In this document: in pieces, positions 2,933-29,701 of the stretch
Position numbering within the stretch: position 1 is the first letter of the stretch
Layout: every line of letters starts with the position of its first letter
UHGV virus genome: UHGV-0181887
DNA from: a virus
Reading direction: 5' to 3' (one strand)
DNA length: 29,701 nucleotides
Made by a program: the position numbers and the translations under genes
Notes under the pieces: model-generated
The model's input: the letters and a program-made list of their open reading frames with translations, nothing else
What the model was told of the DNA's origin: nothing
Databases searched by the model: none

Positions 2933-3904
2933 ATGATTCGATCTCTCGTTAAATGGCCTGGTGGTAAAGGTCGCGTTTTACCTGATTTATTGCCGGTATT
3001 GCCGAAAGGTGATTGCCTGGTTGAGCCGTTTGTGGGCGGCGCTTCTGTCTTTCTGAATACCGAGTATCGCCGTTATGTTCTGGGCGACATAAACCCAGAT
3101 TTAATAAACCTTTATCGCCAGGTTGCGCATTTTCCAGATGGCGTCATTGAGGATGCGAAGCGACTGTTTAAAGTCTTTTGCACACCGGATGGGTATGCAG
3201 ATACAAGGGATGATTTTAACTCGCGTCGCCTCTCTCACCTCCCGGCGCAAGATGGCCCCAGCGCGGAGCATATAACCCGCGCAGCGCAATTTCTTTTCCT
3301 CAATCGCCACTGCTATAACGGAATGGTTCGCTACAACCAGAGCGGCGGCTACAACGTCCCTTACGGCAAGCATAAAACCGCGCCTTATTTCCCGGAAGAG
3401 CAGATCCGTTTGTTCTCTGAAAAGGCTAATGACACAAGGGCTATTTTCTTGTGTTGCTCATTTGAAAGCACAATCAGGGTTACTACTGATTGCGCTTCCG
3501 TTATTTATTGTGACCCGCCGTACCTACCAGTAAGCGACACCGCCAACTTCACCGAATATTACAGCGGCCCATTTGGTGAGAAACAACACCGCCAGTTGGT
3601 TGCGGCCCTCGTTGATGCAAACCGCGAGACGGGCGCGTCTGTCGTGATTTCTAACAGTGATACTCCGCTGACCCGCGAGATTTATAAAAACTTCCGCTTC
3701 CAGGAAATTGCCGTTCAGCGTTCGGTAAGTGCCAACACCCTGAAGCGCGAAAAGGCCAAAGAGGTGATCGGCGTTCTCAATGTGTGCGATGGCTGCGGGC
3801 GTGCCGGTGGTGGGCGTTGTCCTGATTGCGGCCCTGCTATGGGTGACGCGACTTACAGTGAAATGTTGGCAACGGCTGCGGCAAATGGCGTGGAGGCTTT
3901 CTGA
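2933..3904 (+). CDS. dam: DNA N6-adenine methyltransferase (Dam-like) with C-terminal Cys4 zinc-ribbon extension
   Basis: Motif I VEPFVGGASVF and motif IV DPPY (VIYCDPPYLP) read directly; C-terminal CDGCGRAGGGRCPDCG; GAGAAAG RBS before ATG 2933. Confidence 0.85.
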   Translation: MIRSLVKWPGGKGRVLPDLLPVLPKGDCLVEPFVGGASVFLNTEYRRYVLGDINPDLINLYRQVAHFPDGVIEDAKRLFKVFCTPDGYADTRDDFNSRRLSHLPAQDGPSAEHITRAAQFLFLNRHCYNGMVRYNQSGGYNVPYGKHKTAPYFPEEQIRLFSEKANDTRAIFLCCSFESTIRVTTDCASVIYCDPPYLPVSDTANFTEYYSGPFGEKQHRQLVAALVDANRETGASVVISNSDTPLTREIYKNFRFQEIAVQRSVSANTLKREKAKEVIGVLNVCDGCGRAGGGRCPDCGPAMGDATYSEMLATAAANGVEAF

Positions 3905-4175: not shown

Positions 4176-6770
4176 ATGACTGATTTTGCATGGCCCTGGA
4201 ACGCGCCGCGCGCCGCTGTTGGCCCCTACGTCTACATTCCTAAAAAAATCGCCCCGCTTGCCGGGGCGGTGGCGCATCACCCAGCCGTTAAAAAACACAT
4301 CGATCACCTTTTCAAAGAAGCTGGTTATAACCCAGAAGAAGTCCGCGACCGCAACGCGTTAATCCAGGCGCTGGACAGATGCGAGCCGCGCGGGCTGCCA
4401 TTAGCCAGACATCAGGAATTTATCCGCCAGCAAAATGAAGCCGTCAAAGCGGCGGCGGCTGCCTGGGCAGATACGCCGGAAGGAGTGGAAGCGCGCCTCT
4501 TGTCTGAGCCGTATTACATTCGCGAAGTGTGGCGTAAAAAAATTGACTGGCTGCGGACTAACCGCGAAGCACGACACATTAATGATTTTCTTATGGGCAC
4601 CGTGAAAAAATCCTTAATGCGTCTTGATGTTGTTCGACGCCAGCAAGGCACAGAAACTTATGTCCGCAGTGAGTTGGCAGCGTACTGGCAGGAGGACTGG
4701 CAACGCCTTGCTGGTTTTACTAAGCGCGAGGTGTTAAGCGCAGCATATGAAATAGCTAATCGTCTGGAGGAAATGTTTAGCACGGAGTGTGAGGCGCAAA
4801 AGCTGACCGTTGAGTCTATGACAAACGATGAGCTTGATTGGCTTTACTGGCACCTGGGCCGTGAAATGCTGGCCTTGCGTGTTGTGCCGCCAGCCTGGGG
4901 CAAGCCGTGGGAGCGCGATCGTATCTTTACCGCCATTCTTCGGATGTCTTCGCCGGACTGGTGGGGGCGTAAAATCTGGCGTTTGCGCTGTGACTGGCGT
5001 GAAAATCAACTTCGTGCAGTTGGCGCAGTAAACAAAAAAGCACACGCCTATGTAAGCGCCAGTAGCCTGATTGAGTGGGAGGAACAGCGCCGGAAAAATC
5101 GCAACTTCATGAAAAATCATGAATTGGTCGATCAGGATGGTAACGTTTCTTCGCTGGAAGACATGATTAATAAATCCACGTCTAATCCGGCTATTCGTCG
5201 CCATGAGCTTATGGCTCGCATGGCTGGTGTGGAGCTTGTCGCCCAGAGTCGCGGCGATGTCGGCATCTTCCTGACTATTACGAGTCCGTCGAAATATCAC
5301 AGCAATATCCAATCCGGGCATCATAACGGTAAATGGAATCACACCACGGTTGCAGAGGCGCAGCAGTATTTATGCCGTGTCTGGAATCGTGCTACCGCCA
5401 AGCTGAAACGCGAAGATTTGCGCCCTTATGGCTTTCGTGTTGCGGAGCCGCATCACGATGGCACTCCGCACTGGCACGCCCTGATATTCATGCCGAAAGC
5501 TGAAGTTAAAGCGACTATCGCCATTCTTCGCGAGTACTTCATTAAGGAAGACCGCGCCGAGTTGGGCCGCAATACCGGTGCGCGTTTTAAATCCAAGAAA
5601 ATGGACCCGCGTAAGGGATCGGCAACGGCATACATTGCTAAATACATTTCAAAGAATATCGACGGACACGCCCTGGCGGGTGAACTGGATGACGAAAGCG
5701 GCAAGCCGCTTAATGAAACTGCTAAATACGCAATGGCGTGGGCGTCACTCCATCGCATACGGCAATTTCAGCCGCTGGGCCAGCCACCTGTGTCTGTTTA
5801 TCGCGAGTTACGCAAACTGAGCAACCAGATCACCGCGCGCCGGAAGATAGCCAACACCTTTAAGCGCGGCGCACCACAGATTGACGATCCTGCAATGGAT
5901 GCCGTTTGTGCCGCTGCGGATGTTGGATGCTTCGCAACCTACATCATCCGCCAGGGCGGTGTGTTGGTACCGCGTGATCGCTACGTGGTGCGCCTGGCAT
6001 ATCAGCCAGCCGAGGAAATGAATGCCTATTGTGAAACGCCCGATAAAGTTTTTGGCGTTTGGTCACCCCGGCTGGGTGACGTATCCCGCATTTGTACGCG
6101 TCTTGTTAAATGGACTATTCGCGCCAAATCATCAGCTAATACCGAGGCCGAACGCGGCCCCGGTTTGGGGGTTGACGTTTGCCCGTCGCCCTTGGGCGAC
6201 GCTTGGAGTTCTGTCAATAACTCTACGGAAGACGAAAAAATCACCGATTTTCAGCCTGACGATGAGGCAGAGACAGAAAATTCAGACGATGAAATCTTTG
6301 ATTTTGACAACATGACCGATAGGCAACGTCGCAAATTGTGGAAGCGGCTCCGGGAAATGCCGCCGCCGTGCCGAAATGTTGCCCCGCCATATCCTCCAGG
6401 TAGTGATTTAGATATTGCCTGGCGGGCTGCCGCCGAAAAATTAGAGTCAAGACGCCTGGCTGAAGATGCCCAGCGCGTAGGTATGGGCCCGGCGATAGCC
6501 CGTCTGGAGTCAGAAGCTGCGTTGCATGGTCTGGAGCTTGGCGAGGCGTTGGCGGTATCGCTGTTGAAGGGTGGAAGCCTGACTGTTGGGGCAAAAGTTT
6601 ATCGCGCAAAAGTTAGCGGCGAGCTAATCACGCGTCAGCAATTCGATGAGTCAGTGAAAGTGAATAGGTTGTGGGAACGGCTGAGGGATAACCACGGTGT
6701 GAACATCACCGAGCTGAGATTTGACCCGGTTGGGGAGTATCAAAAAATGCTCAAGTTAGTCACCGGGTAA
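4176..6770 (+). CDS. A: Rolling-circle replication initiator endonuclease (P2 gpA-like)
   Basis: 864-aa ORF; HUH-type motif PHWHALIF and paired-tyrosine motif YIAKYISK characteristic of the P2 A / phiX174 A family; position after the early genes. Confidence 0.85.
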   Translation: MTDFAWPWNAPRAAVGPYVYIPKKIAPLAGAVAHHPAVKKHIDHLFKEAGYNPEEVRDRNALIQALDRCEPRGLPLARHQEFIRQQNEAVKAAAAAWADTPEGVEARLLSEPYYIREVWRKKIDWLRTNREARHINDFLMGTVKKSLMRLDVVRRQQGTETYVRSELAAYWQEDWQRLAGFTKREVLSAAYEIANRLEEMFSTECEAQKLTVESMTNDELDWLYWHLGREMLALRVVPPAWGKPWERDRIFTAILRMSSPDWWGRKIWRLRCDWRENQLRAVGAVNKKAHAYVSASSLIEWEEQRRKNRNFMKNHELVDQDGNVSSLEDMINKSTSNPAIRRHELMARMAGVELVAQSRGDVGIFLTITSPSKYHSNIQSGHHNGKWNHTTVAEAQQYLCRVWNRATAKLKREDLRPYGFRVAEPHHDGTPHWHALIFMPKAEVKATIAILREYFIKEDRAELGRNTGARFKSKKMDPRKGSATAYIAKYISKNIDGHALAGELDDESGKPLNETAKYAMAWASLHRIRQFQPLGQPPVSVYRELRKLSNQITARRKIANTFKRGAPQIDDPAMDAVCAAADVGCFATYIIRQGGVLVPRDRYVVRLAYQPAEEMNAYCETPDKVFGVWSPRLGDVSRICTRLVKWTIRAKSSANTEAERGPGLGVDVCPSPLGDAWSSVNNSTEDEKITDFQPDDEAETENSDDEIFDFDNMTDRQRRKLWKRLREMPPPCRNVAPPYPPGSDLDIAWRAAAEKLESRRLAEDAQRVGMGPAIARLESEAALHGLELGEALAVSLLKGGSLTVGAKVYRAKVSGELITRQQFDESVKVNRLWERLRDNHGVNITELRFDPVGEYQKMLKLVTG

Positions 6771-8171: not shown

Positions 8172-9233
8172 TTATTTGATTGATTCAAGCAGGGCGTAAG
8201 GTCTAAAGCGGATCACTTCTTCGCCAAGCCAGTCGTTGACGTGCTTCAGTGCTTCCATTGCTGGCATCAGTTCGTTGATGGCAAACACGCGCGCGGCTTT
8301 CTCCACATCACCGAATGAGCCGTTGCCGTCCGGCATGGCCCCCATCAGTTGCGGTGGTACTCGGTGAGCGGCAAGGATGTCATCACGCGTAGCTGATTTG
8401 ATATTTAAAAACTCATCCTTTGCAGATATCTGGCTGAAGGGCATCAGTTGTACCCCGTCTTTGCCGCCGCCTGGTGCGTGGATCACTACGTTCTTAAATG
8501 CGCCTTTGTTCCTGGCTCCTGCCAGCGTTTGCTGTATCTGTTTTACACCGGCGTCATCTACCTGTGATGTGCCGATGTAAAGAATGCAGCCAGCATGAGA
8601 TCCGTTCTCATAGTACATTTTGCGGAACATATCCGCCGAGTGTGACAGGCTGGCTGACAACAGGGCGCCCATATATTCCGGCATTCCGTAGATTTCCTGA
8701 TGAATATCGGGGTTCAGCACGTGGCAAACTGTGCCGGTTTCAAAGGCGCATTCGTCTTTCCACTGTCTGATAAACCAGTACGTGTCCAGGTCGGTGCCAC
8801 GCCGGGTGTACTTAGCAGGGCAATGGCGAAGCGGTAGCCGCCCGCCTAGCCGGTTCTTTCGTTCTTCAAGGTAGAAGTTGCCAAACACAAACCAGTCAAG
8901 TGCCAGGGCGGAGAACGTCTGGCGAGACAGTAGCGGGTGTGGAATAAAGCATCCCGCCAGCGCGTTGCGCTTGAAGTACAGCGCTGACTGGTGCCAGGAC
9001 GCTTTGCCGAATGAGCGCGCAAGCCCGTACCAGTCCACCGGCGTTTCGTAGTATCTGCCGTTATCGGCGCAATACATATTGTCGAGCAGGTCGTAAGCGT
9101 CAGTGACCTGGTATGGCCCGTCAAAGGTGAAGGCGCTCAGAGCGGGATCGCGCTTCAGCGCTTCGCCAATATCAGCCTGTTGCGCGCCGTCAGTAAGCAT
9201 GGTCATACCGCTTTCATGTGTTGTTGTGTTCAT
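8172..9233 (-). CDS. Q: Portal protein (P2 gpQ-like)
   Basis: 353-aa ORF downstream of and overlapping the terminase gene on the minus strand; size and position match P2 Q. Confidence 0.85.
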   Translation of the reverse strand: MNTTTHESGMTMLTDGAQQADIGEALKRDPALSAFTFDGPYQVTDAYDLLDNMYCADNGRYYETPVDWYGLARSFGKASWHQSALYFKRNALAGCFIPHPLLSRQTFSALALDWFVFGNFYLEERKNRLGGRLPLRHCPAKYTRRGTDLDTYWFIRQWKDECAFETGTVCHVLNPDIHQEIYGMPEYMGALLSASLSHSADMFRKMYYENGSHAGCILYIGTSQVDDAGVKQIQQTLAGARNKGAFKNVVIHAPGGGKDGVQLMPFSQISAKDEFLNIKSATRDDILAAHRVPPQLMGAMPDGNGSFGDVEKAARVFAINELMPAMEALKHVNDWLGEEVIRFRPYALLESIK

Positions 9234-10957
9234 TAAAACTCCATAACGAAACTACCGCCGCCGCCGTTCTCGCGTCCAAGCGGCTCGTTGATGACTGCCA
9301 GCATATTGGCCCAGGCTAAGTCGCCGTGACTGACTCCGCGCGCGCGGTCGGTGTCATAAGTGACTTGTCCGCCGGGGGTGGTGATCTTTCTGACAGCGTT
9401 GAATGCTGACACTAGCGCCTGTTCACTGCGGTCATACTCCCAGCGCCCCGCGCGGATCACCTGTTGCATTTTCAGTACCAGGGTGCGCTTTGATGACAGC
9501 GACATGATGAAACAGACCGCAGCCGGGAAGAACTTTTTGACCAGTTGCCAGACCGCTTCACCGATGCCGGTGCCGTCAATTGCGATGTGTCGAACGTTAT
9601 ATTTCATCGTCAGGTCTTCGATCACTTTGGCCTGTTCTTCAAACTCCATCCCGCGTAGCTGGCGCGTTTCTATCGTGCGGAACTTGCCACCACTGACCAG
9701 GGGAGGGGCAACCACGGAAACAGCGCCGCTGTCACCGTTGCCGCTGCCGCCGTTGGCGTCGTAGCCTATCCAGACTTCACGTTCACCCAGCGGGCGCGGT
9801 GCGTAGGGTTTCCAGTCCTGCCAGTCGTCGTAGCCGTCCGCGCCACACGTCAGTAGCTGATTGAGTGAGAAAACAGCCTCGCCTTCTCTGACGAACTCAC
9901 ACATGTACAGGTTGGTGTATTCGTCCGGGGTATTTTCGTCCTGGATTTCTTCCAGGTCGGTGAACTCCCAGCCGTGGTCGATCACGTCCTTCAGGGTGAC
10001 AATCTGCCGCCAGGTTTTGTCCGGGCATAACAGGCCGCTGTTTAGCGTTTTCCAGCTTGTGTCGAAGTCTACCCGGCTGGACTTGGCCCGCTTCTCATTC
10101 CAGCGCTTGCCAGTCCAGAAGGGGTAGGCTTCGTGGCTTTCGCTCGATGGCGTTGAAAAGTAAGTGCGCGTAAGCCCTTTCAGGGTTGCCATAGCGCCAG
10201 CCACTTTGCGAAGGTTGGCAAAGTTGCCTACCCAGAAAAATTCATCAAAAAACAGGTTGCCGGTGTAACTCTGCGCGGTAGCGGCAGACGTGCCGAGAAA
10301 ATGCAATTCAGCCCCGTTAGACAGCAAAATTTTGTCACCGCCCTTTAGTTCTACGTCTACCTCTTCGGCAATCTTCTGAATGAATCCCCTGAACTGGTGC
10401 GCCTGGCGGCGTGAAGCGGACAGAAAAATCTGGTTGCGTTGGTATCCGTGCTTAACGTCATCCCGCAGCGCCTGTAATAGCGCTTCGCGGGCAAAATACC
10501 AGGTTGCGCCAATCTGGCGACTTTTCAGGATCATGCGGTTTCGTTGCTGGCGCTGTTCAAACCATCCCTGCTGATGCCAGGCCAGAGAGTCCTGAATTTT
10601 TTCCCGCAGCGCGGCGATCTGCGCTTCGGTGAAGTGGTTTTTCTTCTTGCCCGCGCGCGCTTTCTTGAAGGGTTGCGCCGGTTGGCCTTCTGCCAGCTTC
10701 TTCACCTGGCGCGTGAGCGCGTCGATTTCCTTCAGATCGCCGCCGGTCTTTGTTGGTTTCATCGCGATTTGGCATAACCGGGCATCAATAGATTGTGTGA
10801 CGCGCTGAATCGCGGGCGTTTCGTCCCATTCGTCGCGCTTTTTCCACGAATAAACCGTGTTCTGACTGATACCCATCAGGCGTGCGATCTCTGCTGGCGG
10901 GTAGCCCTGCCAGTAAAGCTGCTTTGCTCTCTGTCTTACAAATGCGTCCTGGATCAT
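9233..10957 (-). CDS. P: Terminase large (ATPase) subunit (P2 gpP-like)
   Basis: Start placed at ATG 10957 with GAGAGGA 6 nt upstream (the track ORF extends to a TTG at 11041); Walker-A-like KSRQIGAT; divergent from O. Confidence 0.85.
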   Translation of the reverse strand: MIQDAFVRQRAKQLYWQGYPPAEIARLMGISQNTVYSWKKRDEWDETPAIQRVTQSIDARLCQIAMKPTKTGGDLKEIDALTRQVKKLAEGQPAQPFKKARAGKKKNHFTEAQIAALREKIQDSLAWHQQGWFEQRQQRNRMILKSRQIGATWYFAREALLQALRDDVKHGYQRNQIFLSASRRQAHQFRGFIQKIAEEVDVELKGGDKILLSNGAELHFLGTSAATAQSYTGNLFFDEFFWVGNFANLRKVAGAMATLKGLTRTYFSTPSSESHEAYPFWTGKRWNEKRAKSSRVDFDTSWKTLNSGLLCPDKTWRQIVTLKDVIDHGWEFTDLEEIQDENTPDEYTNLYMCEFVREGEAVFSLNQLLTCGADGYDDWQDWKPYAPRPLGEREVWIGYDANGGSGNGDSGAVSVVAPPLVSGGKFRTIETRQLRGMEFEEQAKVIEDLTMKYNVRHIAIDGTGIGEAVWQLVKKFFPAAVCFIMSLSSKRTLVLKMQQVIRAGRWEYDRSEQALVSAFNAVRKITTPGGQVTYDTDRARGVSHGDLAWANMLAVINEPLGRENGGGGSFVMEF

Positions 10958-11020
10958 GCGGTGTCCTCTCGTTTCGATGGAGAGATTAACCCGCGCGCGT
11001 GGGCTGTTCCCGCTGTTTGG

Positions 11021-11049
11021 GTTGTGGGCCGTCTCTGACAACTAAAACG
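11021..11049. promoter_or_regulatory. Late-promoter activator site (Ogr box TGT-N12-ACA) in the divergent P/O region
   Basis: TGT 11023-11025, 12-nt spacer, ACA 11038-11040; extended element GTTGTG-N5-TCTCTGACAACTAAAACG shared with 28195-28223. Confidence 0.6.
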
Positions 11050-11113
11050 CGTTGAGACAATGACTTAGCAACTGACATCATGGAAAAACAGAAACCAACC
11101 GGCAGGAAAGAAC

Positions 11114-11953
11114 ATGAGTGAAACCAGCAAACCTACCCGGAAGAAATTCCGCGTTGCCGTCTCCGGTGCCACCGTTGACGGTCGCGAAATTCGACCAGAT
11201 CACCTCCGTGATGCTGCCGCGAGCTATAGCCAGGACGTTTACGGCGCTCGCGTGAATGTTGAACATTATCTCTCGCCTTATCCAGGCAGTGATTTTGGTG
11301 CGATGGGGGATGTTACGGCGCTTAGCGCTGAGGACATTACTGAAGGTCCGCTAGCAGGGCGCACTGCGTTATATGCGGAAATTGAACCGTCAGCGCAAAT
11401 GAAAGCGCTGACAGATGCCGGTAAGAAAGTCTATTCCAGTATTGAATTGCACCCGCAATTTGCACTGAACGGTAAGGCCTACATTGTCGGCCTGGCGATG
11501 ACTGATACCCCGGCAAGTCTGGGTACTGATCGCCTGAAGTTTGCGGCCCAGCAGCGCCAGCAGGTGCAGGCATTCAATAAACAGCAGGGCGAAAGCGCGA
11601 TGTTCTCTGACGCCATTGAAGCGGAAGTGATCGAACTGGCTGAGCAGCGAAGTGATGAAGGCAGCAAGTGGTTTAGCCGCATGAAGGAAATTCTGACCAA
11701 AAACCATAAAACCGACAGCGAGCAATTCAGCCAGGTGCGCGAAGTGGTTGAAGGTGTCGCCACGTCTCAGGCGGGCCTTATCGATCAGGTGGTGGAACTG
11801 AGAAGCCAGCGCGCTGACGACGCAAAGGAAATTCAGAAGTTGACCAGCGAACTGACCGACCTGAAAAACACACTGGCAAAGCAGGACGCCAGCACTTTCA
11901 GCCGCCAGCCCGCACAGGGCGGTAACACCGGCGTCGAACAAGCCGATTACTAA
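11114..11953 (+). CDS. O: Capsid scaffolding protein (P2 gpO-like)
   Basis: 279-aa ORF, first gene of the rightward late operon, followed by the major capsid protein; size matches P2 O. Confidence 0.85.
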   Translation: MSETSKPTRKKFRVAVSGATVDGREIRPDHLRDAAASYSQDVYGARVNVEHYLSPYPGSDFGAMGDVTALSAEDITEGPLAGRTALYAEIEPSAQMKALTDAGKKVYSSIELHPQFALNGKAYIVGLAMTDTPASLGTDRLKFAAQQRQQVQAFNKQQGESAMFSDAIEAEVIELAEQRSDEGSKWFSRMKEILTKNHKTDSEQFSQVREVVEGVATSQAGLIDQVVELRSQRADDAKEIQKLTSELTDLKNTLAKQDASTFSRQPAQGGNTGVEQADY

Positions 11954-14027: not shown

Positions 14028-14525
14028 ATGAGTAGCCTGATAGCGACAAAAACGCCGTTTCCGGCTGGCAGTGACGTAACTGATGTTGATGACGGTGATT
14101 CCACGGTAACGGCGGGAAGTTTCTGGCCTGTCATTAACCTGAAGGATTTACGCCTTGCCGCGCGTATTACCGGCGGCGTCACTACTTCGCGACTGATGCA
14201 CGTTACTACTGAAGCCGTGGGACACGTCATCGAGCAACTTGAAGAGTGGCAGATCAATCAGCAGGGGCTGGGCTATGAGGCGCTGAAGAACGTGCCCGCC
14301 GTGGAGATAAACGGCGAGAGCGTGAAGGTGTACCGCTACCGTCGTGCGGTTTATTCCATTGCCCGCGCCCTGGTGATTGAAGGTTACCGGGACGTTGATA
14401 CCACGCCAAAAGGCGACAAAGACGCCGCCGCGCTGGATTTGCAGCGCGAAGACCTCTGGCGTGATGCGCGCTGGGGTATTGCAGACATCCAGCGCAAGCC
14501 GCGCGTTTATGCGGAGTTGTGCTGA
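14028..14525 (+). CDS. L: Head completion / stabilisation protein (P2 gpL-like)
   Basis: 165-aa ORF; position and size as P2 L (169 aa). Confidence 0.8.
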   Translation: MSSLIATKTPFPAGSDVTDVDDGDSTVTAGSFWPVINLKDLRLAARITGGVTTSRLMHVTTEAVGHVIEQLEEWQINQQGLGYEALKNVPAVEINGESVKVYRYRRAVYSIARALVIEGYRDVDTTPKGDKDAAALDLQREDLWRDARWGIADIQRKPRVYAELC

Positions 14526-15909: not shown

Positions 15910-16081
15910 AACGCCCACGCCGGAACTGAAAACGCCGGTGACGTGGGGCGGCATTGCGATTTGGGCCGATCAGTTGCATGACGCGCTTGATACCTGCAAT
16001 GCGGATAAGAGTGATATCCGGGCGCTAAATCTGTTGCGCCTGGCACGCCAGAGGGGAGGGGAACCACATGCTGAAAATTAA
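15794..16081 (+). CDS. lysC: Outer-membrane lipoprotein spanin (Rz1-like, P2 LysC position), overlapping the 3' end of lysB in another frame
   Basis: ATG 15794 with GAGGGGA RBS; signal peptide with lipobox LSVMGC; Pro-rich mature region. Confidence 0.7.
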   Translation: MIRVPVLLLLLLSVMGCSGKIRVQTRLIHEPIPESLTDETPTPELKTPVTWGGIAIWADQLHDALDTCNADKSDIRALNLLRLARQRGGEPHAEN

Positions 16082-16520
16082 CTCATTACGTAGCGCGCTC
16101 ACCAGGGCTAATCCGTGGTGTCGTGCCAACCCTGAAGCCTTCAGCGTTTTTATTGAATCCGGGCATGTTGAGACGACCGGCGAAACGGCTGACTTTGTTT
16201 ACGCCTATACGCTGTGTCTCTTTGTGATGAATTTTGCCGGTGATCTGGATGATTTCACGTTGCCGCTGATGGCCTGGCTGTGGCAGGAACAGCCGCAACT
16301 GTTGCTGAACCCGGAGAAGAACAAAGAAATTAAGTTCACAACGGCAATCAATAATGACGATACCGCCGATCTGTTTTTTGAACTGCCTATTAGTGAACGC
16401 GTGATTGTATCGCGTGATGAAGCCGGGAAGCTGACCGGAAAGCATAAGCCGGAACCCCGCCCGCGCATGATGCCAGAGTGGGGCGCGATGTTGAGCGAAC
16501 CAGGGAGTGACAACCCATGA
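16068..16520 (+). CDS. R: Tail completion protein (P2 gpR-like)
   Basis: 150-aa ORF; position and size match P2 R (155 aa). Confidence 0.75.
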   Translation: MLKINSLRSALTRANPWCRANPEAFSVFIESGHVETTGETADFVYAYTLCLFVMNFAGDLDDFTLPLMAWLWQEQPQLLLNPEKNKEIKFTTAINNDDTADLFFELPISERVIVSRDEAGKLTGKHKPEPRPRMMPEWGAMLSEPGSDNP

Positions 16521-17155
16521 ATGCCGGTGATGTTCACGCGCTGGATCAGTATTTCGCAGACATCCTGGCGGGGGCGTCATCCAGTGGGCGGGCCAGAACG
16601 GCGCGCGCCGTGGGTAAGGTTTTACGAATTAGCCAGCAACAGCGCATACGCGCACAGCGCAACCCGGACGGAAGCCAGTACCCGTCACGCCGCCGTAAAA
16701 CGCTGCGCACCCAGCAGGGGATCGCCTTTATCTGGGAAGGGCAGTTGCGCCGGTTGAAAAACTGGCACAGCGGGCGCGGTAAGTACGGGCGGACTATTAC
16801 CGGATTTGATGAAGACCGTAATGAGATCCGCACGTTCTACCGTGCCGATATTGAACGCTATACGGAAATTAATACCCGCGCGGGCCAGCGCTCAAAAGTG
16901 GTCAAGGCACCAATGTTTGTAAAGCTGAGAACCGCCCGCTTTATGAAAGTGAAGTCATCAAGTGAGGGGGCTGAGGTGGGTTACAGCGGTATGGCGGCCC
17001 GTATCGCCCGCATTCATCAGTACGGGTTGCGTGAACAGGTGGGCCCGGGGGCGTTTGCGAAGTATGCGCCGCGTGTCCTGTTGGGGATCTCTAAGGCCGA
17101 TGAAGCGCTGATCCGTAGCGCGGTGATTAACAGCCTGGGGAGTGCCGGGGCATGA
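16517..17155 (+). CDS. S: Tail completion / virion morphogenesis protein (P2 gpS-like)
   Basis: 212-aa ORF coupled to R (ATGA overlap); position as P2 S. Confidence 0.7.
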   Translation: MNAGDVHALDQYFADILAGASSSGRARTARAVGKVLRISQQQRIRAQRNPDGSQYPSRRRKTLRTQQGIAFIWEGQLRRLKNWHSGRGKYGRTITGFDEDRNEIRTFYRADIERYTEINTRAGQRSKVVKAPMFVKLRTARFMKVKSSSEGAEVGYSGMAARIARIHQYGLREQVGPGAFAKYAPRVLLGISKADEALIRSAVINSLGSAGA

Positions 17156-20866: not shown

Positions 20867-21298
20867 ATGTTTAGTAATATATATTTCAGTGCTAAGAATA
20901 ACTCATTCTTTTTTGAGTCAATGAAATCAGACTATGAAAAAACGAATACTTGGCCTGATGACATTGTTGAAGTTGAATCTGATATTTATCAGAAATACAC
21001 AGGAAGGCCGCCAGAAGGAAAAGGTAGAGGAGGCGACGCTTCCGGTCAGCCTGTATGGGTTGATGTATCAGAGCCTACAGCCGATCAGTTAATTGCGTTA
21101 GCTATACAGCAAAAAAAAGACTTGGCTGAAAATGCAGGTACAGAAATTGCGTGGCGGCAGGATGCGATTGAAGCTGGTATTTCAACCGATGATGAAGTTA
21201 TTCAGCTTGCGAAGTGGAAGAAATATCGGGTGCTATTGATGCGTATTGACACATCAAAAGCCCCCGACATTATCTGGCCTGATATCCCTGAGGATTAA
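20867..21298 (+). CDS. G: Tail fibre assembly chaperone (Tfa, P2 gpG position)
   Basis: 143 aa from ATG 20867, directly after H; AT-rich; the conserved Tfa-like C-terminal half is a family assignment by position and size. Confidence 0.7.
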   Translation: MFSNIYFSAKNNSFFFESMKSDYEKTNTWPDDIVEVESDIYQKYTGRPPEGKGRGGDASGQPVWVDVSEPTADQLIALAIQQKKDLAENAGTEIAWRQDAIEAGISTDDEVIQLAKWKKYRVLLMRIDTSKAPDIIWPDIPED

Positions 21299-22263
21299 TT
21301 TGATAGGCTTTTTAGTCTAAAGTTTGCAATTAAATTATCTTTAATGATATTAGCTATTGAATAGCTAATGCAAATAGTGCATGCGACTGTTGTTATGACT
21401 AACCAATCAGATGCAAATTGTTTTGCAAGCTGAATGGCATAGATTTGTATAAGATATATGTTTTTTGAGTGCTCGCGAATTGTGAAGGTGTTTTTTGTTT
21501 TCAGGGTGATATCTAGCACTTTTAAAAAAACAAAAACACCAGCGAACGGAAGTGAAAAAAGCATATCAAAGGTATATGTGCCATATGAATAATTTACGGA
21601 TGCCTCAATGATGACCAAAATAATGGAACCAATGAGTAAATATGTATTGTTATTTCTTATATTATTTTTATTTATAAGGTATCCAAGCATAAATAATGGA
21701 AAACCCATGAAAAGACCGTTTCTGGAAAAGAAAACTGTAGCGAGAGACCATATATCACGATTTATGTCAATGGCATAATTTGCGCGATATTGAAGTAACG
21801 TGCCGCACGTATAAAGTATGCAGCATATGATTATTGATGTGCGATCTTTTAGCTTAGCTAAAAGTAATGTTAATAATGCCGATACTATCAGGGCAGGGAA
21901 AAACCATAAGTGCCAAAATCCAAATACTGCATTTAGAGATAAATATGTAAGGTCTGTCGCTAAAGGTTTACCCGCCCTAATAAAACCAACTAACCCTAGT
22001 ATTATTGGCAAGTAAAGAAGCGTCCATAGAGCATAGGTTTTTATATTGTGAGAAAACCATTTTTTAATTTTATTTTTTTGCATTACAGAAAAATAAAAAT
22101 ACCCACTAGTAATGAAAAAGAATGGCACTGCAATCCTTAGAAGTCCCTGGCAAGTAACATATCCTATATAATTACTGTTGCCGCCTAAAATGTCTGTGTG
22201 TATAAAAATAATACAAAACGCAAAGAAAAGTTTTGCGTAATCAATTGAGGAAAGGTTTTTCAT
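21295..22263 (-). CDS. Acyltransferase family 3 integral membrane protein (OafA/Oac-like O-acetyltransferase candidate); lysogenic-conversion moron
   Basis: 322-aa polytopic membrane protein with about 10 hydrophobic segments; strongly AT-rich by eye; antisense to the late operon at the P2 Z/fun variable position. Confidence 0.7.
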   Translation of the reverse strand: MKNLSSIDYAKLFFAFCIIFIHTDILGGNSNYIGYVTCQGLLRIAVPFFFITSGYFYFSVMQKNKIKKWFSHNIKTYALWTLLYLPIILGLVGFIRAGKPLATDLTYLSLNAVFGFWHLWFFPALIVSALLTLLLAKLKDRTSIIICCILYTCGTLLQYRANYAIDINRDIWSLATVFFSRNGLFMGFPLFMLGYLINKNNIRNNNTYLLIGSIILVIIEASVNYSYGTYTFDMLFSLPFAGVFVFLKVLDITLKTKNTFTIREHSKNIYLIQIYAIQLAKQFASDWLVITTVACTICISYSIANIIKDNLIANFRLKSLSN

Positions 22264-22430: not shown

Positions 22431-22919
22431 TTAAAACAGACTGGATGCGGCAGCGCTGATATTATTCAGCGCTGAGTTGGCTGTGTTTTGTAGGTTGCTG
22501 AGTAAATCACTCACTGATGAAGACTGGAGGCTTTCGCGCAGGTCTTCATCCTGCCTTTGAAACGTGATCGTAAATTCTATTTTCTTCGGCTCCCCATACT
22601 GGTCAAATTCAGTATCGGTTGTCTGAAGCTGCGTTATCGAATACATGCCATATATCCGCCCGGTGCCGCTGATAAGGGGCCAGGGGCGTCCGGTATATGC
22701 CTGTGTATCGAGCACAGTTAGACTCACCTTGCCGCCGGTCACTGAAGGGTACAAAACGCCGGATAGGGTGATTTGATCGTCACCTGCACCAATGTATTGC
22801 CACTTTGCCGATCGGTTTATGCGCTCGTTCTTCACATGCCGCCAGGTCTTTGACTGCTGCAATTGTTGGTGTGGAACGGTTTTTAACTCAAAGACGAACA
22901 TTCCGTAAACCATCATCAT
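22431..22919 (-). CDS. U: Tail protein U (P2 gpU-like)
   Basis: 162 aa; N-terminus MMMVYGMFVFELKTVPHQ resembles P2 U (recalled from memory); follows the tape measure gene. Confidence 0.8.
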   Translation of the reverse strand: MMMVYGMFVFELKTVPHQQLQQSKTWRHVKNERINRSAKWQYIGAGDDQITLSGVLYPSVTGGKVSLTVLDTQAYTGRPWPLISGTGRIYGMYSITQLQTTDTEFDQYGEPKKIEFTITFQRQDEDLRESLQSSSVSDLLSNLQNTANSALNNISAAASSLF

Positions 22920-22931
22920 TTTTTTGCTCTC

Positions 22932-25900
22932 CTAATCTTTGTCTCTGAAACTGCTGCCAGAGCGGGAACGCTTGTTAAGTTCCGCCACAACTGCTTCACC
23001 CACCATCCGTGCAATGTCGCGGGCGTCGTTGCTGAGATTGCCGTGCATATGAATGTGAATATGCATTTCATCAGGCGCGGTGTTTTGCGTCGGTCTGCTG
23101 GCTTGTTTACTGGATTGCCCGCCAATAGCCTGTACTTCAGCCGCCGGTTTAATCGGTGCTGATGCCGCTGTGATAGCGGGGCGTGCGCTAAGTTGGGCCA
23201 GGTTAGCGCCAGGGGTTGATTGTGCTTCCTGCCATGCGCCGTGGACGGCTAAAGCGCGGGGCAGATTTTTAAACACGATATCGCCAGGGCCGATCCGCTT
23301 TTTGGTTTCATCCAGCATCCCGCCGGTGTTGTCGGCAATTTTCTGTAGGCGTCGTTGCGTTCCTGTATCAGCGGCAATCACTGGTGACGGTGGGGCAATA
23401 GGTGGCGCGGTTACCGCTTTCACATCACCGGTGAGCGCGCTAACTTTATCCTGCAGCATAGCCAGTCCTGCCGGTGTTAACTCCTGCTGTATCTTTTGTG
23501 CCTTTGCTCTGGCTGCTTCAATGCCTGAAGGGATTAATCCCAACTTTTCCAGTATCCAGCCAATGCCTTTCATTAACCCCGTTAAGGGCAACATTAACCC
23601 CTGAAGCACCGCACCAAATACGGTGCCGAATCCATACCCGGCAATTTTGCAATCATCCAGCGTCTTTTGTGTTGTTTGCATTGGGCTAATCAGGTTTGTA
23701 AACCACTGCCACACTTGGGCGAGCGCATTTGAAATAACGCCAAATATCGGGGCTAGAGAGGAAAACGCAGTGATTAAAGGGGCGAGGGCATTAACCACAC
23801 CAGTAAAGAATCCCGCAAAGAAGGCTTTGATCGGCTCCCAGTATTTCCAGACCAGTAGACCTACCGCGATAAGCGCCGCGCCAATCAGTCCAATCGGACT
23901 CAGGATAAACGACAGCACACCGCCGAGAGCGGAAATTGCGGTTGTGGCAATGCTCATGATAGTGGGGATGCCGGACAATCTGAGGAGAAGGCCACCAATG
24001 CTCTTAGTTAGCCCACCAATCGCCGCCCCTGGCGACATAAACGCCCCCATCATAATTCCGCGTAACGGCGCAAGAATGCTGGTAAGTTTTCCAGTACTTC
24101 CCGCTATTCCGCCCAAAATTGGGCCCCAGGCCCGCGCGCTGCCAAGCGGCCCGGTAATGGCACCACCAAGACGACTGAATAGAGATAGCGCACCGCCAGC
24201 ACTGCCGGAACTTGTCAGCAGGGTAAAGCCGAGTTGCAGTTTTGCCAGCGGGCCAAGAAGTAAGCCAATAGCCAGAGACGTTGCACCAATCGCGGCGGTG
24301 AGGGCCAGCGCACTGCCGCCAACTACCAGAAGGGTTTTTGATAGCTGCGGATTCTTATTCGCCCATTCCGTCATCACGCCGATCGTACCGGTTAGTGCCT
24401 GGGTGAGTTTTCGCAGTGCGCCGTCCGCCAGTTCTTCAATCTGGATGCGGAACGCTTCCAAGGCGCTATCGAGTTCTTTTAGATCCCCGCCCAGGTTGTC
24501 CGCCATTTTTTTTGCGACGGTGGCGGATTCACCGGCGGCGCCCTGAAGTTCTTTTGTGAGCTTTTGTAGCTCCCCCGAACCTGCCGCCTGTACCAGCGTT
24601 TGAAGGCCCACAAAAGCCTCTTCACCGGCGATGTCCTTGAAGAACGATACCTGATCGACTTCGCCGTATTTTTTCGTGGCCTTGAAAAGGTCTGACAGCA
24701 CGGTTTCCATCGGGCGCATTTTCCCGTTGGCGTCGGCAACTGATACGCCCAACTCTGCCAGGGCTTTAGCCGCGGCTTTTGGCGGTGAGGCTAGGCGGGA
24801 AAGGCTGGAACGCATAGCTGTACCGGCGTCACTGCCGCGCAGACCGTTATTGGCAAGCATACCCGCCATAGCGGATGCCTCTTCCAGGCTAATTCCCAGA
24901 TTAGCCGCCACTGGCCCGGCATATTTCATTGTGTCGCCCAGGGCGCGCAGGTCGGTATTGGTACGGGTAAAAGCGGCGGTTAGCGTATCGCCAACCCTGT
25001 CCATCTGATCTGATGACAGCTTGAATTGCGTCAGGATGTTTGAACCGATATCAGCGGATTCGCCCAGATCCATGCCACCGGCTAACGCCATATTCAGAAC
25101 GCCAGGCAATGCGGCCTGAATTGACTGTGGTGTAAAGCCCGCCATTGCTAAGAAGGCTTGCCCGCTGGCGGCGTCTCGCGTGGTAAATGCGGTTTCAGCA
25201 CCCAGTTTTTTAGCCTGGGCGCGCATAGCGGCAAACTGTTCATCGCCCTTATCCAGGCGAGTCAGTGCACCTACGCGGGACATTTCCTCATCAAAACCAA
25301 CGGCTGGGGCCAGGAAGCGTCCGGCAGCGTAGCCCGCCCCCGCGCTTGCGCCAACAGCCATTGCGCCGCCGGTGCGTAGTTTGCCAGCCGTGGCGCTCAG
25401 ACGGTCATAGCGGGCGCGCGCGTTGGTGACTGCGGCAAGTTGTCGCCGTTCTCTCTCAAGCGTCTGGTTATATTGCTCAGTGCGCCTGATGGCGCTTTGA
25501 ATTGTGCGATCGCCGCCCGCCAGTGAGACACCGTGCGCGCGCAGCGCCTGGGACGCTTGCTGGAGTTTTGCTGTCTCCTGTGACCGGCTGGCATTCAGGC
25601 GATCAAGTTTCGCCGCCAGTGCCGTCATGCGCTCGCGCTGTGCGTCGGTTAGTACGGTGCCGTCCTTCTGGGCTTTGTTCAGGCCGTCAAAGGCGCGCTG
25701 TGTTGTAGTAAGTTGCTGGGCTGTCTTTTTAACGCGCTCATTCAGGCGGTTGAATGCCTGGGATTGCGTTTCCAGATCCTTGATAGAAGATTGTGTTTTT
25801 TTGAGGGATTCAGATAAGCCGCCCACTGAGTTGCGGGCGGCATTTACCGGGCGGGTTAACTTATCAATCGCACTGAAGGCGACACGAATATTAAGGTCTT

Positions 25901-25940
25901 TCATCTTCACTGTTTCCGCTTCGGATAGCCGCCCGCTCAC
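22932..25940 (-). CDS. T: Tail tape measure protein (P2 gpT-like)
   Basis: 1002-aa Ala/Gly-rich protein with coiled-coil N-terminus and hydrophobic glycine-zipper-like central segments; follows E/E'. Confidence 0.9.
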   Translation of the reverse strand: MSGRLSEAETVKMKDLNIRVAFSAIDKLTRPVNAARNSVGGLSESLKKTQSSIKDLETQSQAFNRLNERVKKTAQQLTTTQRAFDGLNKAQKDGTVLTDAQRERMTALAAKLDRLNASRSQETAKLQQASQALRAHGVSLAGGDRTIQSAIRRTEQYNQTLERERRQLAAVTNARARYDRLSATAGKLRTGGAMAVGASAGAGYAAGRFLAPAVGFDEEMSRVGALTRLDKGDEQFAAMRAQAKKLGAETAFTTRDAASGQAFLAMAGFTPQSIQAALPGVLNMALAGGMDLGESADIGSNILTQFKLSSDQMDRVGDTLTAAFTRTNTDLRALGDTMKYAGPVAANLGISLEEASAMAGMLANNGLRGSDAGTAMRSSLSRLASPPKAAAKALAELGVSVADANGKMRPMETVLSDLFKATKKYGEVDQVSFFKDIAGEEAFVGLQTLVQAAGSGELQKLTKELQGAAGESATVAKKMADNLGGDLKELDSALEAFRIQIEELADGALRKLTQALTGTIGVMTEWANKNPQLSKTLLVVGGSALALTAAIGATSLAIGLLLGPLAKLQLGFTLLTSSGSAGGALSLFSRLGGAITGPLGSARAWGPILGGIAGSTGKLTSILAPLRGIMMGAFMSPGAAIGGLTKSIGGLLLRLSGIPTIMSIATTAISALGGVLSFILSPIGLIGAALIAVGLLVWKYWEPIKAFFAGFFTGVVNALAPLITAFSSLAPIFGVISNALAQVWQWFTNLISPMQTTQKTLDDCKIAGYGFGTVFGAVLQGLMLPLTGLMKGIGWILEKLGLIPSGIEAARAKAQKIQQELTPAGLAMLQDKVSALTGDVKAVTAPPIAPPSPVIAADTGTQRRLQKIADNTGGMLDETKKRIGPGDIVFKNLPRALAVHGAWQEAQSTPGANLAQLSARPAITAASAPIKPAAEVQAIGGQSSKQASRPTQNTAPDEMHIHIHMHGNLSNDARDIARMVGEAVVAELNKRSRSGSSFRDKD

Positions 25941-26363
25941 GCCAGGCTATCACCTCACTCAGGGACATAGTGAAAACCTCTGAGGGCGGCCAGTTGAAAA
26001 TAACTGCTATATCAGCAACCAGATCATCGATCAGGTCAAAGTGGGGCGCGTTTACTCGCTCTCCGTCTCCGTCTCGTTCTTCGTGCCAGGCTCCTTCGGC
26101 GCTAAAAAAGGCGTTAGTACCTCGCAAAGTTCAACAAAGTCAGATGTTTCCATTTCACTGATTTCTTTGAGCTTCAGGCGTGGGGAAGTGCAGCGGGTTA
26201 ACAGGGTGCTGATGCTGTCCACGTCCATATTCATAACGTTCACCAGGCGAAGGCCGCGCAGGGAGCCAGCCTGTTTCACTTCGTCAGTGATCGTGATGGT
26301 TTTGATTTCGTTGCCGTCGCGGGAGATCGGGCGGGTCAGTGTTACGGTGTTTTCTTGAGTCAT
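25891..26363 (-). CDS. E+E': Tail assembly chaperone E+E' (product of -1 programmed frameshift)
   Basis: E frame 26363-26052 and overlapping -1 frame ending at 25891; translation across the slip site changes from ...LTPFLAPKEPG to ...LTPFFSAEGAWHEE, matching the track ORF 25891..26127. Confidence 0.7.
26052..26363 (-). CDS. E: Tail assembly chaperone E (P2 gpE-like)
   Basis: 103-aa ORF between the tail tube and tape measure genes; contains the slippery site near its 3' end. Confidence 0.8.
   Translation of the reverse strand: MTQENTVTLTRPISRDGNEIKTITITDEVKQAGSLRGLRLVNVMNMDVDSISTLLTRCTSPRLKLKEISEMETSDFVELCEVLTPFLAPKEPGTKNETETESE
26103..26109 (-). promoter_or_regulatory. Slippery heptamer T_TTT_TTA for -1 ribosomal frameshift (E to E+E')
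   Basis: Minus-strand zero-frame codons CCT TTT TTA GCG; slipping -1 gives TTT TTT AGC GCC, continuing into the E' ORF. Confidence 0.65.
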
Positions 26364-26417
26364 CGTTTTAATCTCCGGGCGGCATCACCACGATGCCGCG
26401 CCTGTAGTGGTTGTTGG

Positions 26418-26930
26418 TTACCCCATGCCCAGCGCGGACATCACGCGGGAAGGGTAAATATTTTCGCCGTTGCGTTTGTACACGAAGTTCAGCAGGTCAA
26501 TTTCCCAGATGGGCTTATCGTCAATTGACAGCTTGTAGTACGTGTTTTTAATGGCGTAGGTGACGGATGTATCTTCGCCCTGTTTGCTTTCGCCGCCGTC
26601 GATTTCGGTGAATTTGCCGCGCATTTCCACGTCAACGATCTGGCTTTCGCCGGATGTGTAATATTCCCCGGTGAATCGGATAAGCGTACCGTCCAGATCG
26701 CCGCCGTATTCCAGTAGCAAAGCCTGAACCAGGCCGCCTACAACCATCGTGGCATCAAGCGCGCCGCTATCCAGTCCGAGATCGACAGCAACAGAGCCAA
26801 TCATCCCGCCGCCCTGATAGTCGTCAGTTTTGCGGGTCAGTTTTGGCAGCGTGACAGATGTCACTTTGCCGATATTGTTCACGCTGTTCACAAAGCAGGT
26901 GAACAGCCGTAGTTTTGGTGGAATCGCCAT
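26418..26930 (-). CDS. FII: Tail tube protein (P2 gpFII-like)
   Basis: 170 aa; N-terminus and internal KLTRK...GGGM...VDLGLD segments resemble P2 FII (recalled from memory). Confidence 0.85.
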   Translation of the reverse strand: MAIPPKLRLFTCFVNSVNNIGKVTSVTLPKLTRKTDDYQGGGMIGSVAVDLGLDSGALDATMVVGGLVQALLLEYGGDLDGTLIRFTGEYYTSGESQIVDVEMRGKFTEIDGGESKQGEDTSVTYAIKNTYYKLSIDDKPIWEIDLLNFVYKRNGENIYPSRVMSALGMG

Positions 26931-28121
26931 TTAGTTACTCCCCAGAGACGAAAACGCGCCTTCAAAATATTCATCGGTGAACGTCTGGATCAGCGTCAAA
27001 TCTTCCATCGGTGGCACTGGCGTGTACTTGTAGCGGATCGCCACTTTGCCCTGAATCAGGTTTGCGGTTCCGTTGTCCACGATGTCAAACCAGGCTTCCG
27101 CGCCAAGCAACTTGCCAGCTGTGACCAGTGCACTGAGTTTCTTGTTAATCGCGCTCACCACGTCTTTCACGTTGGTCGGGGTGAGTGGCCCGTCAATGGT
27201 TTCAAATTGCGCCTCTGCGATGGTGTCCGCCAGGATTTGCGCCGTGCGGGTGTACACCTCAAACACAAATTCATTGGTGTCTGTGGTGCGGTTACCCCAG
27301 AAACGGAAGCCATTACGCTTGATGATGGTGGTGATTTCAGCGTTGTTCAGCGTCTGTGCGTCACTGTCTTCAGCCTGAAGCGCCCAGAAAACATCCTTCG
27401 AAATGCCAAGCACATTGCTGACGGCAATGTTAGATAGCGAGCGGTGCCAGCCGTACTGGTTATCAATAAACGCGCGCAGCCCTACCGCATAGGCCGGGGC
27501 CGGGAATACTTCATTTTCCCCGGACACCTGGTTATATGCGATGTAGTCAGGCCAGATCAGCGTGAGTTCGCGTGATGCGAAGGTTTTACGATACGCGAGG
27601 GCTTCCGCCAGCGTCTTGCAGCCGTTACAGCTTGCATAAACATAGGCGCGAAGCTGTTTGGCGATCACACAAAGCTGTGCCGTCACTTCTTCGGTGTCGT
27701 ATTCAGGAACCGCCAGGATGCGCGGTCGATACTGTGTCTTCTGTTCGGCAGTCAGAAGCGCATACATGCCGGTGTAGTTACCTTCAGCATCAGAGCCACC
27801 GATAATTAGTTGCGCTTGCGTTTTCGCTTCTGCGTCGCCTTCCAGCGGCTTGGCTGCGGCGACACGAACAACAATGACTTTCGCGCTTGCCTGGTCTGAA
27901 ATGGCTTTCAGCGTTTTGTACAGCGTCCCTGTTTTCCCCGCCTTGCCCAGCATCGACTGAGGCCGCGTGATAAGCGTTGGGGTGTTGAGTGGAAATGCGT
28001 CTTCGTCCGCGTCATCAGCGATGACAATTACGCCAATGACGCTGGAGTCAATGTCGTTAATTACCTTCGTGATGTCGGTTTCTTCTTTGGTGCGAGCACC
28101 GTGAAAACGTGTCTCAGACAT
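26931..28121 (-). CDS. FI: Contractile tail sheath protein (P2 gpFI-like)
   Basis: 396 aa from ATG 28121 (GGTGA RBS; track ORF begins 12 nt upstream at 28133); segments RPRILAVPEYDTEEV, IRRNGFRFWGNRT and YKYTPVPPMEDLTL resemble P2 FI. Confidence 0.9.
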   Translation of the reverse strand: MSETRFHGARTKEETDITKVINDIDSSVIGVIVIADDADEDAFPLNTPTLITRPQSMLGKAGKTGTLYKTLKAISDQASAKVIVVRVAAAKPLEGDAEAKTQAQLIIGGSDAEGNYTGMYALLTAEQKTQYRPRILAVPEYDTEEVTAQLCVIAKQLRAYVYASCNGCKTLAEALAYRKTFASRELTLIWPDYIAYNQVSGENEVFPAPAYAVGLRAFIDNQYGWHRSLSNIAVSNVLGISKDVFWALQAEDSDAQTLNNAEITTIIKRNGFRFWGNRTTDTNEFVFEVYTRTAQILADTIAEAQFETIDGPLTPTNVKDVVSAINKKLSALVTAGKLLGAEAWFDIVDNGTANLIQGKVAIRYKYTPVPPMEDLTLIQTFTDEYFEGAFSSLGSN

Positions 28122-28194
28122 GTTTGTCACCATTACGTTTTGTTGAGTTCGCCACCATGATTGCTGATTGACGTAACGGCTTCACGCCTTTCTG

Positions 28195-28223
28195 GTTGTG
28201 CTATCTCTCTGACAACTAAAACG
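28195..28223. promoter_or_regulatory. Late-promoter activator site (Ogr box TGT-N12-ACA) in the divergent FI/D region
   Basis: TGT 28197-28199, 12-nt spacer, ACA 28212-28214; 24 of 29 positions identical to the P/O element at 11021-11049. Confidence 0.6.
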
Positions 28224-28274
28224 AATTCTCCCACGCGCGCTCGCGTGGAATTATTCAGCAAAACGGGAGGGTGT

Positions 28275-29408: not shown

Positions 29409-29424
29409 AATGGCGATGAGTTCA

Positions 29425-29446: not shown

Positions 29447-29701
29447 ATGTTCAGATGCCCACATTGCGGCGCTACGGCCCGCACACGTACCAGTAAGCCA
29501 CTAAACGAAGAGCAGACCATCTACCGGCAGTATCACCAGTGCCAGAACATGGAATGCGGATTGTCATTCACCACGCTTAACAGCGTTGAAAAGATAGTCA
29601 CTAAACGTGAGCGCCGCGAAGAGTTATCCCCTGATTTTATCCCTGCCGGTGTTTTTCCTGCCTCGCATTACGGACGCGATCAGCTAAATTTAGCGATATG
29701 A
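29447..29701 (+). CDS. ogr: Late-gene transcription activator, zinc-finger (Ogr/Delta family)
   Basis: 84 aa; Cys4 motif CPHCG...CQNMEC; terminal gene of the prophage, stop at the window end. Confidence 0.85.
   Translation: MFRCPHCGATARTRTSKPLNEEQTIYRQYHQCQNMECGLSFTTLNSVEKIVTKRERREELSPDFIPAGVFPASHYGRDQLNLAI

Follow-up and report, generated by a model that had tools for sequence, protein, structure and literature searches.

At the late promoters of phages P2, 186 and P4, which combine a usable -10 with a poor -35, an activator bound near -55 recruits RNA polymerase via its alpha subunit. The P2 record (NC_001895) annotates one 'activator binding site; pO, pP promoters' at 3057-3087, and the annotated starts of P (3016, minus strand) and O (3127, plus strand) each lie 55.5 bp from the centre of GTTGT-N12-CCATC. 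The 186 record (NC_001317) likewise holds one B-protein site for the divergent promoters p12 and pV (3798-3817), and another for pJ, the sheath promoter. In the Stenotrophomonas phage Smp131, the putative late promoters PP' and PO' were assigned to one 18-bp TGT-N12-ACA that is read on two strands, and the rearranged tail operons are accompanied by relocated sites (PMC3931495). That phage has a distant host and another gene rearrangement, and an FI/D divergent junction is not described for it (PMC3931495).

Closer in layout to the prophage analyzed here are the Klebsiella phages 3LV2017 and ST16-OXA48phi5.4 and the Enterobacter phage phiT5282H, which carry U-T-E-FII-FI and D(-ogr) on opposite strands, with about 67-73% DNA identity to the corresponding regions. 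Their records contain no promoter or binding-site annotation, and no description of a bidirectional FI/D promoter was found in the literature, of which the older part on P2 was poorly covered.

Prophage layout and the inverted tail block

The window, which is the whole stretch of 29,701 nucleotides that was analyzed (UHGV virus genome UHGV-0181887), contains a nearly complete P2-like (Peduoviridae) prophage, as judged from the layout of its open reading frames and from profile searches. The prophage is located between cpxP and fieF-pfkA-sbp. Its minus strand encodes the integrase (int, 190-1170), the C repressor (1313-1606), the portal protein Q (8172-9233) and the terminase large subunit P (9233-10957, with ATG 10957 as the homology-supported start); replication gene A occupies 4176-6770. 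After the capsid scaffold/protease gene O (11114-11953, plus strand) come genes for capsid, lysis, baseplate and fibre, extending to about 21298 with no large gaps. The block of U, T, E, FII and FI (22431-28121, minus strand) includes the tail sheath gene FI at 26931-28121 (minus strand), for which homology places the real start at ATG 28121 and not at 28133. Beyond it lie the baseplate hub gene D (Phage_GPD; 28275-29408, plus strand; start set by homology) and an ogr homologue that encodes an 84-residue protein with a C4 zinc finger (29447-29701, plus strand), the presumed activator of both sites discussed below. Compared with the P2 gene order, the FI-FII-E-T-U block is flipped, and FI and D therefore diverge.

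The inverted arrangement is common and already present in public genomes: we sampled 80 relatives each of D and O from IMG/VR, and FI is divergent from D in all 80 closest relatives of D, while the inverted tail block also occurs in 3LV2017 (Reginaelenavirus), ST16-OXA48phi5.4 (Reipivirus) and phiT5282H (Novemvirus).

Two further features of this region were recorded. A cargo gene on the minus strand (21295-22263), between the fibre-assembly gene G and the tail gene U, encodes a membrane acyltransferase (Acyl_transf_3, PF01757) and has its own sigma-70-like promoter (22327-22300); it is likely to be a lysogenic-conversion gene, for example for O-antigen acetylation. Two metagenome contigs (L195 and L199 1114-2859, versus L194 and L196) carry a deletion remnant in which the N-terminus of the sheath protein is fused to integrase, giving a product of 581 aa; the FI/D junction, D and ogr are intact in these contigs.

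Sequence, number and conservation of the 29-bp elements

Searching the window with up to three mismatches revealed exactly two copies of the 29-mer GTTGTG-N5-TCTCTGACAACTAAAACG, one in the P/O junction (11021-11049) and one in the FI/D junction (28195-28223), and no match was obtained in 100 dinucleotide shuffles. The copies are identical at 24 of 29 positions, with all five N positions differing, which bears out the initial annotation that one element occurs in both divergent junctions. Profile searches also confirmed the flanking gene pairs that it had named, and both elements are positioned upstream of late operons, flanked by terminase P, scaffold O, sheath FI and hub D. Each copy does feature the TGT-N12-ACA dyad that had been pointed out, contained within a longer dyad, GTTGT-N12-ACAAC, that is perfect at both elements and found nowhere else in the window. 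On the plus strand, the dyad of the predicted Ogr-type activator site at P/O spans 11021-11042 (centre 11031/11032) and its A-rich extension TAAAACG faces O; that of the predicted FI/D site spans 28195-28216 (centre 28205/28206), and the same A-rich extension faces D. To the left, the ungapped repeat continues to a total of 43 nt (77%; 11007-11049 versus 28181-28223). This left extension, again on the plus strand, is TTCCCGCTGTTTGG at the P/O junction (11007-11020), which forms a short A-tract on the P-reading strand and has a conserved TTT, and TTCACGCCTTTCTG at the FI/D junction (28181-28194), where TCAC and TTT are conserved in relatives. The elements lie 64 bp from the start codon of P, 65 bp from that of O, 74 bp from that of FI (ATG 28121) and 52 bp from that of D, so that the previously proposed distance of 60-90 bp holds for the first three genes but not for D.

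The bare TGT-N12-ACA motif is not enriched in the window (three found, 6.5 expected) and is uninformative alone, and copies of GTTGT-N12-ACAAC with one or two mismatches are about as frequent as chance predicts (11 found, 12.9 expected); the signal therefore resides in the extended element and its location. One such one-mismatch copy, GTTGTGTCCGCTATCGCAAAAC, is located inside the D coding region (28698-28719) and falls outside the best 12 weight-matrix matches, and copies of this kind with one or two mismatches are expected by chance. The weight matrix was constructed from 52 distinct sites of distant relatives, leaving out the window's own group. It gave 35.2 bits for the P/O element, the top score, and 30.0 bits for the FI/D element, while the next-best score on either strand of the 29.7-kb window was 3.2 bits. 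Each junction has one match; the P/O site in reverse orientation, the only reversed one among the listed hits, scores about 0 bits. The search for further sites in the prophage, which had been suggested along with the two elements, yielded no additional activator site: the matrix favours only the two elements, with no further site, including any equivalent of P_V, above 3.2 bits anywhere in the window. A candidate second site in the P/O junction (11051-11072, GTTGA-N12-GCAAC) was rejected; only its left part, GTTGAGAC, is conserved, and this is better read as a -35-like TTGAGA.

As no site beyond these two was found, the late regulon probably consists of two bidirectional control regions, from which all four late transcription units would be driven. 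Genes O through G (11114 to about 21298) seem to be transcribed as one unit of about 10 kb without the separate V-operon promoter of P2. It was also observed that S (16068-16520) overlaps V (16517-17155), so that a V promoter of its own, as in P2, could not be accommodated.

Comparison of 61 distinct FI/D and 57 distinct P/O junctions revealed that ACAAC and the A-tract following it are invariant or nearly so. The left half-site is lineage-dependent (GTTGT, GGTCT or GTTCT), and the classical consensus is therefore loose, since this half often is GGTCT or GTTCT and lacks TGT. Apart from short conserved blocks, the remaining junction sequence diverges freely. The 19 IMG/VR matches to the element are distributed over P(-)/O(+) junctions (eight) and FI(-)/D(+) junctions (eleven), and all 19 have the A-tract side toward O or D. 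Each junction also has its own signature across relatives, which is GGGC at P/O and mostly GCTATC at FI/D, where two single-base variants occur.

Predicted promoters and the presumed Ogr-type activator

In the 57 P/O and 61 FI/D junctions, each of the four directions has a -10-like hexamer 44-50 bp from the dyad centre. Upstream of P, the predicted -10 is TAATCT (10983-10988, minus strand), which would place the start at about 10976, 55.5 bp from the dyad centre; on the plus strand this hexamer reads AGATTA, which is invariant or nearly so in the 57 distinct P/O junctions. For O, a consensus scan predicted TTGAGA and TG-n-CATCAT separated by an 18-bp spacer (11052-11081, plus strand; start at about 11088), and both CATCAT and GTTGAGAC are conserved in relatives. 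The FI promoter has a predicted -10 of AATCAT (28157-28162, minus strand; start at about 28150), corresponding to an xAxxAT hexamer at a constant offset of 44-49 from the centre in the 61 distinct FI/D junctions. On the D side, a predicted extended -10, TGG-AATTAT (28246-28254, plus strand; start at about 28261), is represented in relatives by TGn plus an xAxxxT hexamer at a fixed offset, and a ribosome-binding site GGGAGG follows at 28265-28270 (plus strand). The gap between the last -10 bases is 98 bp at P/O and 97 bp at FI/D, which indicates that the divergent starts would be about 111-112 bp apart. From the hexamer offsets, starts would be expected about 55-57 bp from the dyad centres, and the four predicted positions lie at 55.5-56.5 bp, compared with 55.5 bp for the annotated starts of P2. 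Junction length is nearly constant in relatives; in the window both junctions measure roughly 155 bp (153 bp for FI/D). The fair -35 of P_O (TTGAGA) and the extended -10s of P_O and P_D make some activator-independent transcription possible.

Near-palindromic (CG)n boxes adjoin the -10s of P and D, not those of O and FI, and are conserved in all relatives. The box CCCGCGCGCGTGGG (10990-11003), with an invariant core CGCGCGCG in relatives, lies directly upstream of the P -10, and the box or hairpin CCCACGCGCGCTCGCGTGG (28230-28247) directly upstream of the D -10. They may act as a second protein site, or as a spacer that holds down basal activity. A terminator function of the hairpin at 28229-28250 was rejected; it is located upstream of the predicted D start and shows no compensatory changes in relatives. 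Nor was there an Rfam family match anywhere in the window that would indicate structured RNA in the junctions. Rfam also gave no family match for an unrelated cyanobacterial element of about 110 nt (L164-L171 and L173; for example L164 4840-4950, minus strand) that we observed alongside; it contains a long inverted repeat, TAGTTGTTAGTTGT...ACAACTAAAAACTAACAACTA, and is 95% identical across seven aligned Scytonema, Tolypothrix, Brasilonema and Nostocales genomes.

The product of 29447-29701 was identified as Pfam Ogr_Delta (58.7 bits; cut-off 26.3), and its CxxC...CxxxxC pattern aligns with that of P2 Ogr. Its 84 aa compare with 72 aa in P2 Ogr; it has a two-residue insertion between the cysteine pairs that is shared with few relatives (e.g. 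L008 and L024). Its C-terminal tail (...FPASHYGRDQLNLAI) is conserved but absent from P2 Ogr. A sigma-70-like promoter, CTGACT-17-TAGAAT (29383-29411), lies within the end of D just upstream of ogr, and its position matches that of the annotated P2 ogr promoter. Together with read-through from P_D, which is possible, it would give early as well as autoregulated late expression of ogr.

Site states and activator sequences were compared in 22 distinct junction pairs from single genomes, plus 3LV2017. Both junctions carry GTTGTG...CTCTGACAACT in the window's group, GGTCTGGCC...GACAACAAAA in a group with about 76% D identity, and CACAAC in 3LV2017. Where the loci overlap, the Ogr sequences (with that of 3LV2017 left out) group in step with the site states. 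This fits a single lineage-specific protein that would read both sites, with shared ancestry as a confounder.

The dyad match to the annotated P2 and 186 sites, the Ogr_Delta gene and the positions at the late operons support the earlier view that these are late-promoter elements of the Ogr type. We therefore consider it likely, from sequence and by analogy with P2 and 186, that both elements are Ogr-family activator sites, each serving two back-to-back late promoters with starts about 55 bp to either side: P_P and P_O around 11031.5, P_FI and P_D around 28205.5. Ogr would bind near -55 and, as in P2, 186 and P4, recruit the polymerase via its alpha subunit. Following inversion of FI-FII-E-T-U, a second bidirectional control region would have taken the place of the single F-operon promoter of P2, giving D, and probably also the downstream ogr, an activator-dependent promoter of its own. 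The P/O element can be taken as the counterpart of the known shared site because it has the same GTTGTG/xCAxC spacing and the prophage encodes an activator of the matching family. FI and D each need a promoter within a 153-bp junction that holds one site, which predicts that this site is used for both. The proposal that one dyad serves both directions is plausible for P/O, where such use is textbook knowledge and annotated in the P2 and 186 records; for FI/D, where the geometry is the same, it would be a reasonable extension. Counting against the shared-site model, the asymmetric half faces D and not the abundantly needed sheath gene, contrary to a 'strong side' model.

P2 and 186 offer no precedent for an activator-dependent D promoter, and the conserved extended -10 of P_D (TGG-AATTAT, 28246-28254) belongs to a type that can work without a -35 or an activator. 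The FI/D site could on these grounds activate FI only, as PF does in P2, with D and ogr transcribed from an activator-independent extended -10 promoter alongside. We regard this as unlikely, given that the D -10 is found at the same dyad offset as those of the other three promoters, that the best-conserved half-site and the A-tract face D, and that the GC box preceding the D -10 has its match at the activator-dependent P promoter; D is moreover a structural tail gene that is needed late, together with FI-U. A chance repeat without function would agree with the unenriched minimal TGT-N12-ACA (3 versus 6.5 expected), but its probability is negligible: it is ruled out by the shuffles, where 100 replicates yielded no 29-mer match, by the weight matrix, with only two high scores, and by conservation of the element in more than 100 distinct relative junctions while the flanks diverge.

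Site polarity, origin and relation to P2 and 186 sites

Both sites of one genome point the same way on the chromosome in P2, in 186 and in every inverted-tail relative examined. The shared orientation of the asymmetric 3' extension, to which the initial annotation had drawn attention, is thus real and kept in every relative examined. The extended half faces O and FI in P2 and 186, and O and D in the window. Owing to the shared polarity, a simple inversion of the site together with FI-U does not explain the present state, which might instead reflect selection on polarity or an ancient copying or gene-conversion event.

Duplication or recruitment of the P/O control region had been suggested as the origin of the FI/D element. 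A P/O site that reached the FI/D junction by copying or gene conversion at the time of the tail-block inversion, rather than two sites held alike by independent constraint from a shared activator, would account for a polarity that simple inversion of the site plus FI..U from a P2-like order would have flipped but that is unflipped in every relative, and also for the inner TCTCTG and the flanking TAAAACG, which are shared beyond the dyad arms. It appears doubtful nevertheless, as the flanks beyond the element of about 43 nt are no more alike than shuffled sequence in any pairing, and the D core promoter, if anything, resembles that of P, which has a GC box, and not that of O, the opposite of what direct copying predicts. 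Duplication of the whole junction, direct or inverted, was rejected for the same lack of flank similarity in six pairings of the four half-promoters against shuffled controls. That each junction has retained its own signature in the relatives speaks against copying in recent times. Nor is the window (24/29) alone in having two similar sites in one genome: P2 (21/29), 3LV2017 (18/29) and 186 (16/29) have them as well, and the P2 PO/PP and PF pair shares GTTGTG, five variable bases and a conserved 3' part without any inversion. Tentatively, the polarity of the site may itself be constrained: the site would not have been flipped with FI, its extended half would now be directed toward D, and a minimal circuit of two oriented sites and four promoters would result. 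ACAAC and the A-tract would then occupy about -46 to -39, the expected location of a proximal UP element. If this is true, positive feedback through P_D-ogr is conceivable, and promoter strength in the two directions could differ because of the asymmetric half.

Reading both elements as shared Ogr-type sites yields a testable promoter map, with two sites and starts near 10976, 11088, 28150 and 28261, for a widespread and unstudied P2-like branch in Enterobacteriaceae, and suggests how the inversion of a gene block can be tolerated, with a promoter that depended on the activator in one direction becoming bidirectional. The co-variation of site and Ogr by lineage provides a natural data set on DNA reading by Ogr-type zinc fingers, which to our knowledge is still poorly defined. 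Beyond the promoter map and the co-variation, the results represent expected biology for this phage family.

Like PP/PO of P2 and p12/pV of 186, the P/O junction of the window contains a single, partially symmetric GTTGTG-N11-xCAxC between the terminase and scaffold genes, with the GTTGTG half toward P and the other half toward O, and in all three phages a gene for an Ogr/B-type zinc-finger activator lies at the end of the late region. The P2 PP/PO starts are about 111 bp apart, compared with the 111-112 bp implied for P/O and FI/D, and a GC-rich palindrome is present in the P2 P promoter at the same place as the GC box of the window's P promoter. The sequences themselves are less alike. GTTGTG-N11-(A/C)CA is common to the P2 and 186 sites and the window elements, but the right half is a perfect ACAAC with a TAAAACG A-tract in the window and CCATC-CGGGAC in P2 PP/PO, and only 13 of 29 positions match between the window P/O site and P2 PP/PO. 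Overall, the window elements match known sites at 13-18 of 29 positions for P2 and 11-15 of 29 for 186, with equal spacing of GTTGTG and xCAxC.

The FI/D element is the counterpart of PF and pJ in a rearranged context. It has GGTTGTGCT.TC....G.CAAC in common with the P2 PF site (NC_001895, 17555-17583), amounting to 18 of 29 positions, and like PF and 186 pJ (14091-14110) it is upstream of the sheath gene, as the second site of the regulon and with the same polarity as the P/O site. PF and pJ, however, are unidirectional, with the extended half toward FI and D as the last gene of that operon, whereas in the window the GTTGTG half faces FI and the extended half faces D, FI-U are inverted, and D has a separate predicted promoter and a ribosome-binding site. 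The FI/D junctions of 3LV2017 and phiT5282H, the two that were read, each contain one GTTGT/GGTCT-N12-ACAAC site with an A-tract, as in the window.
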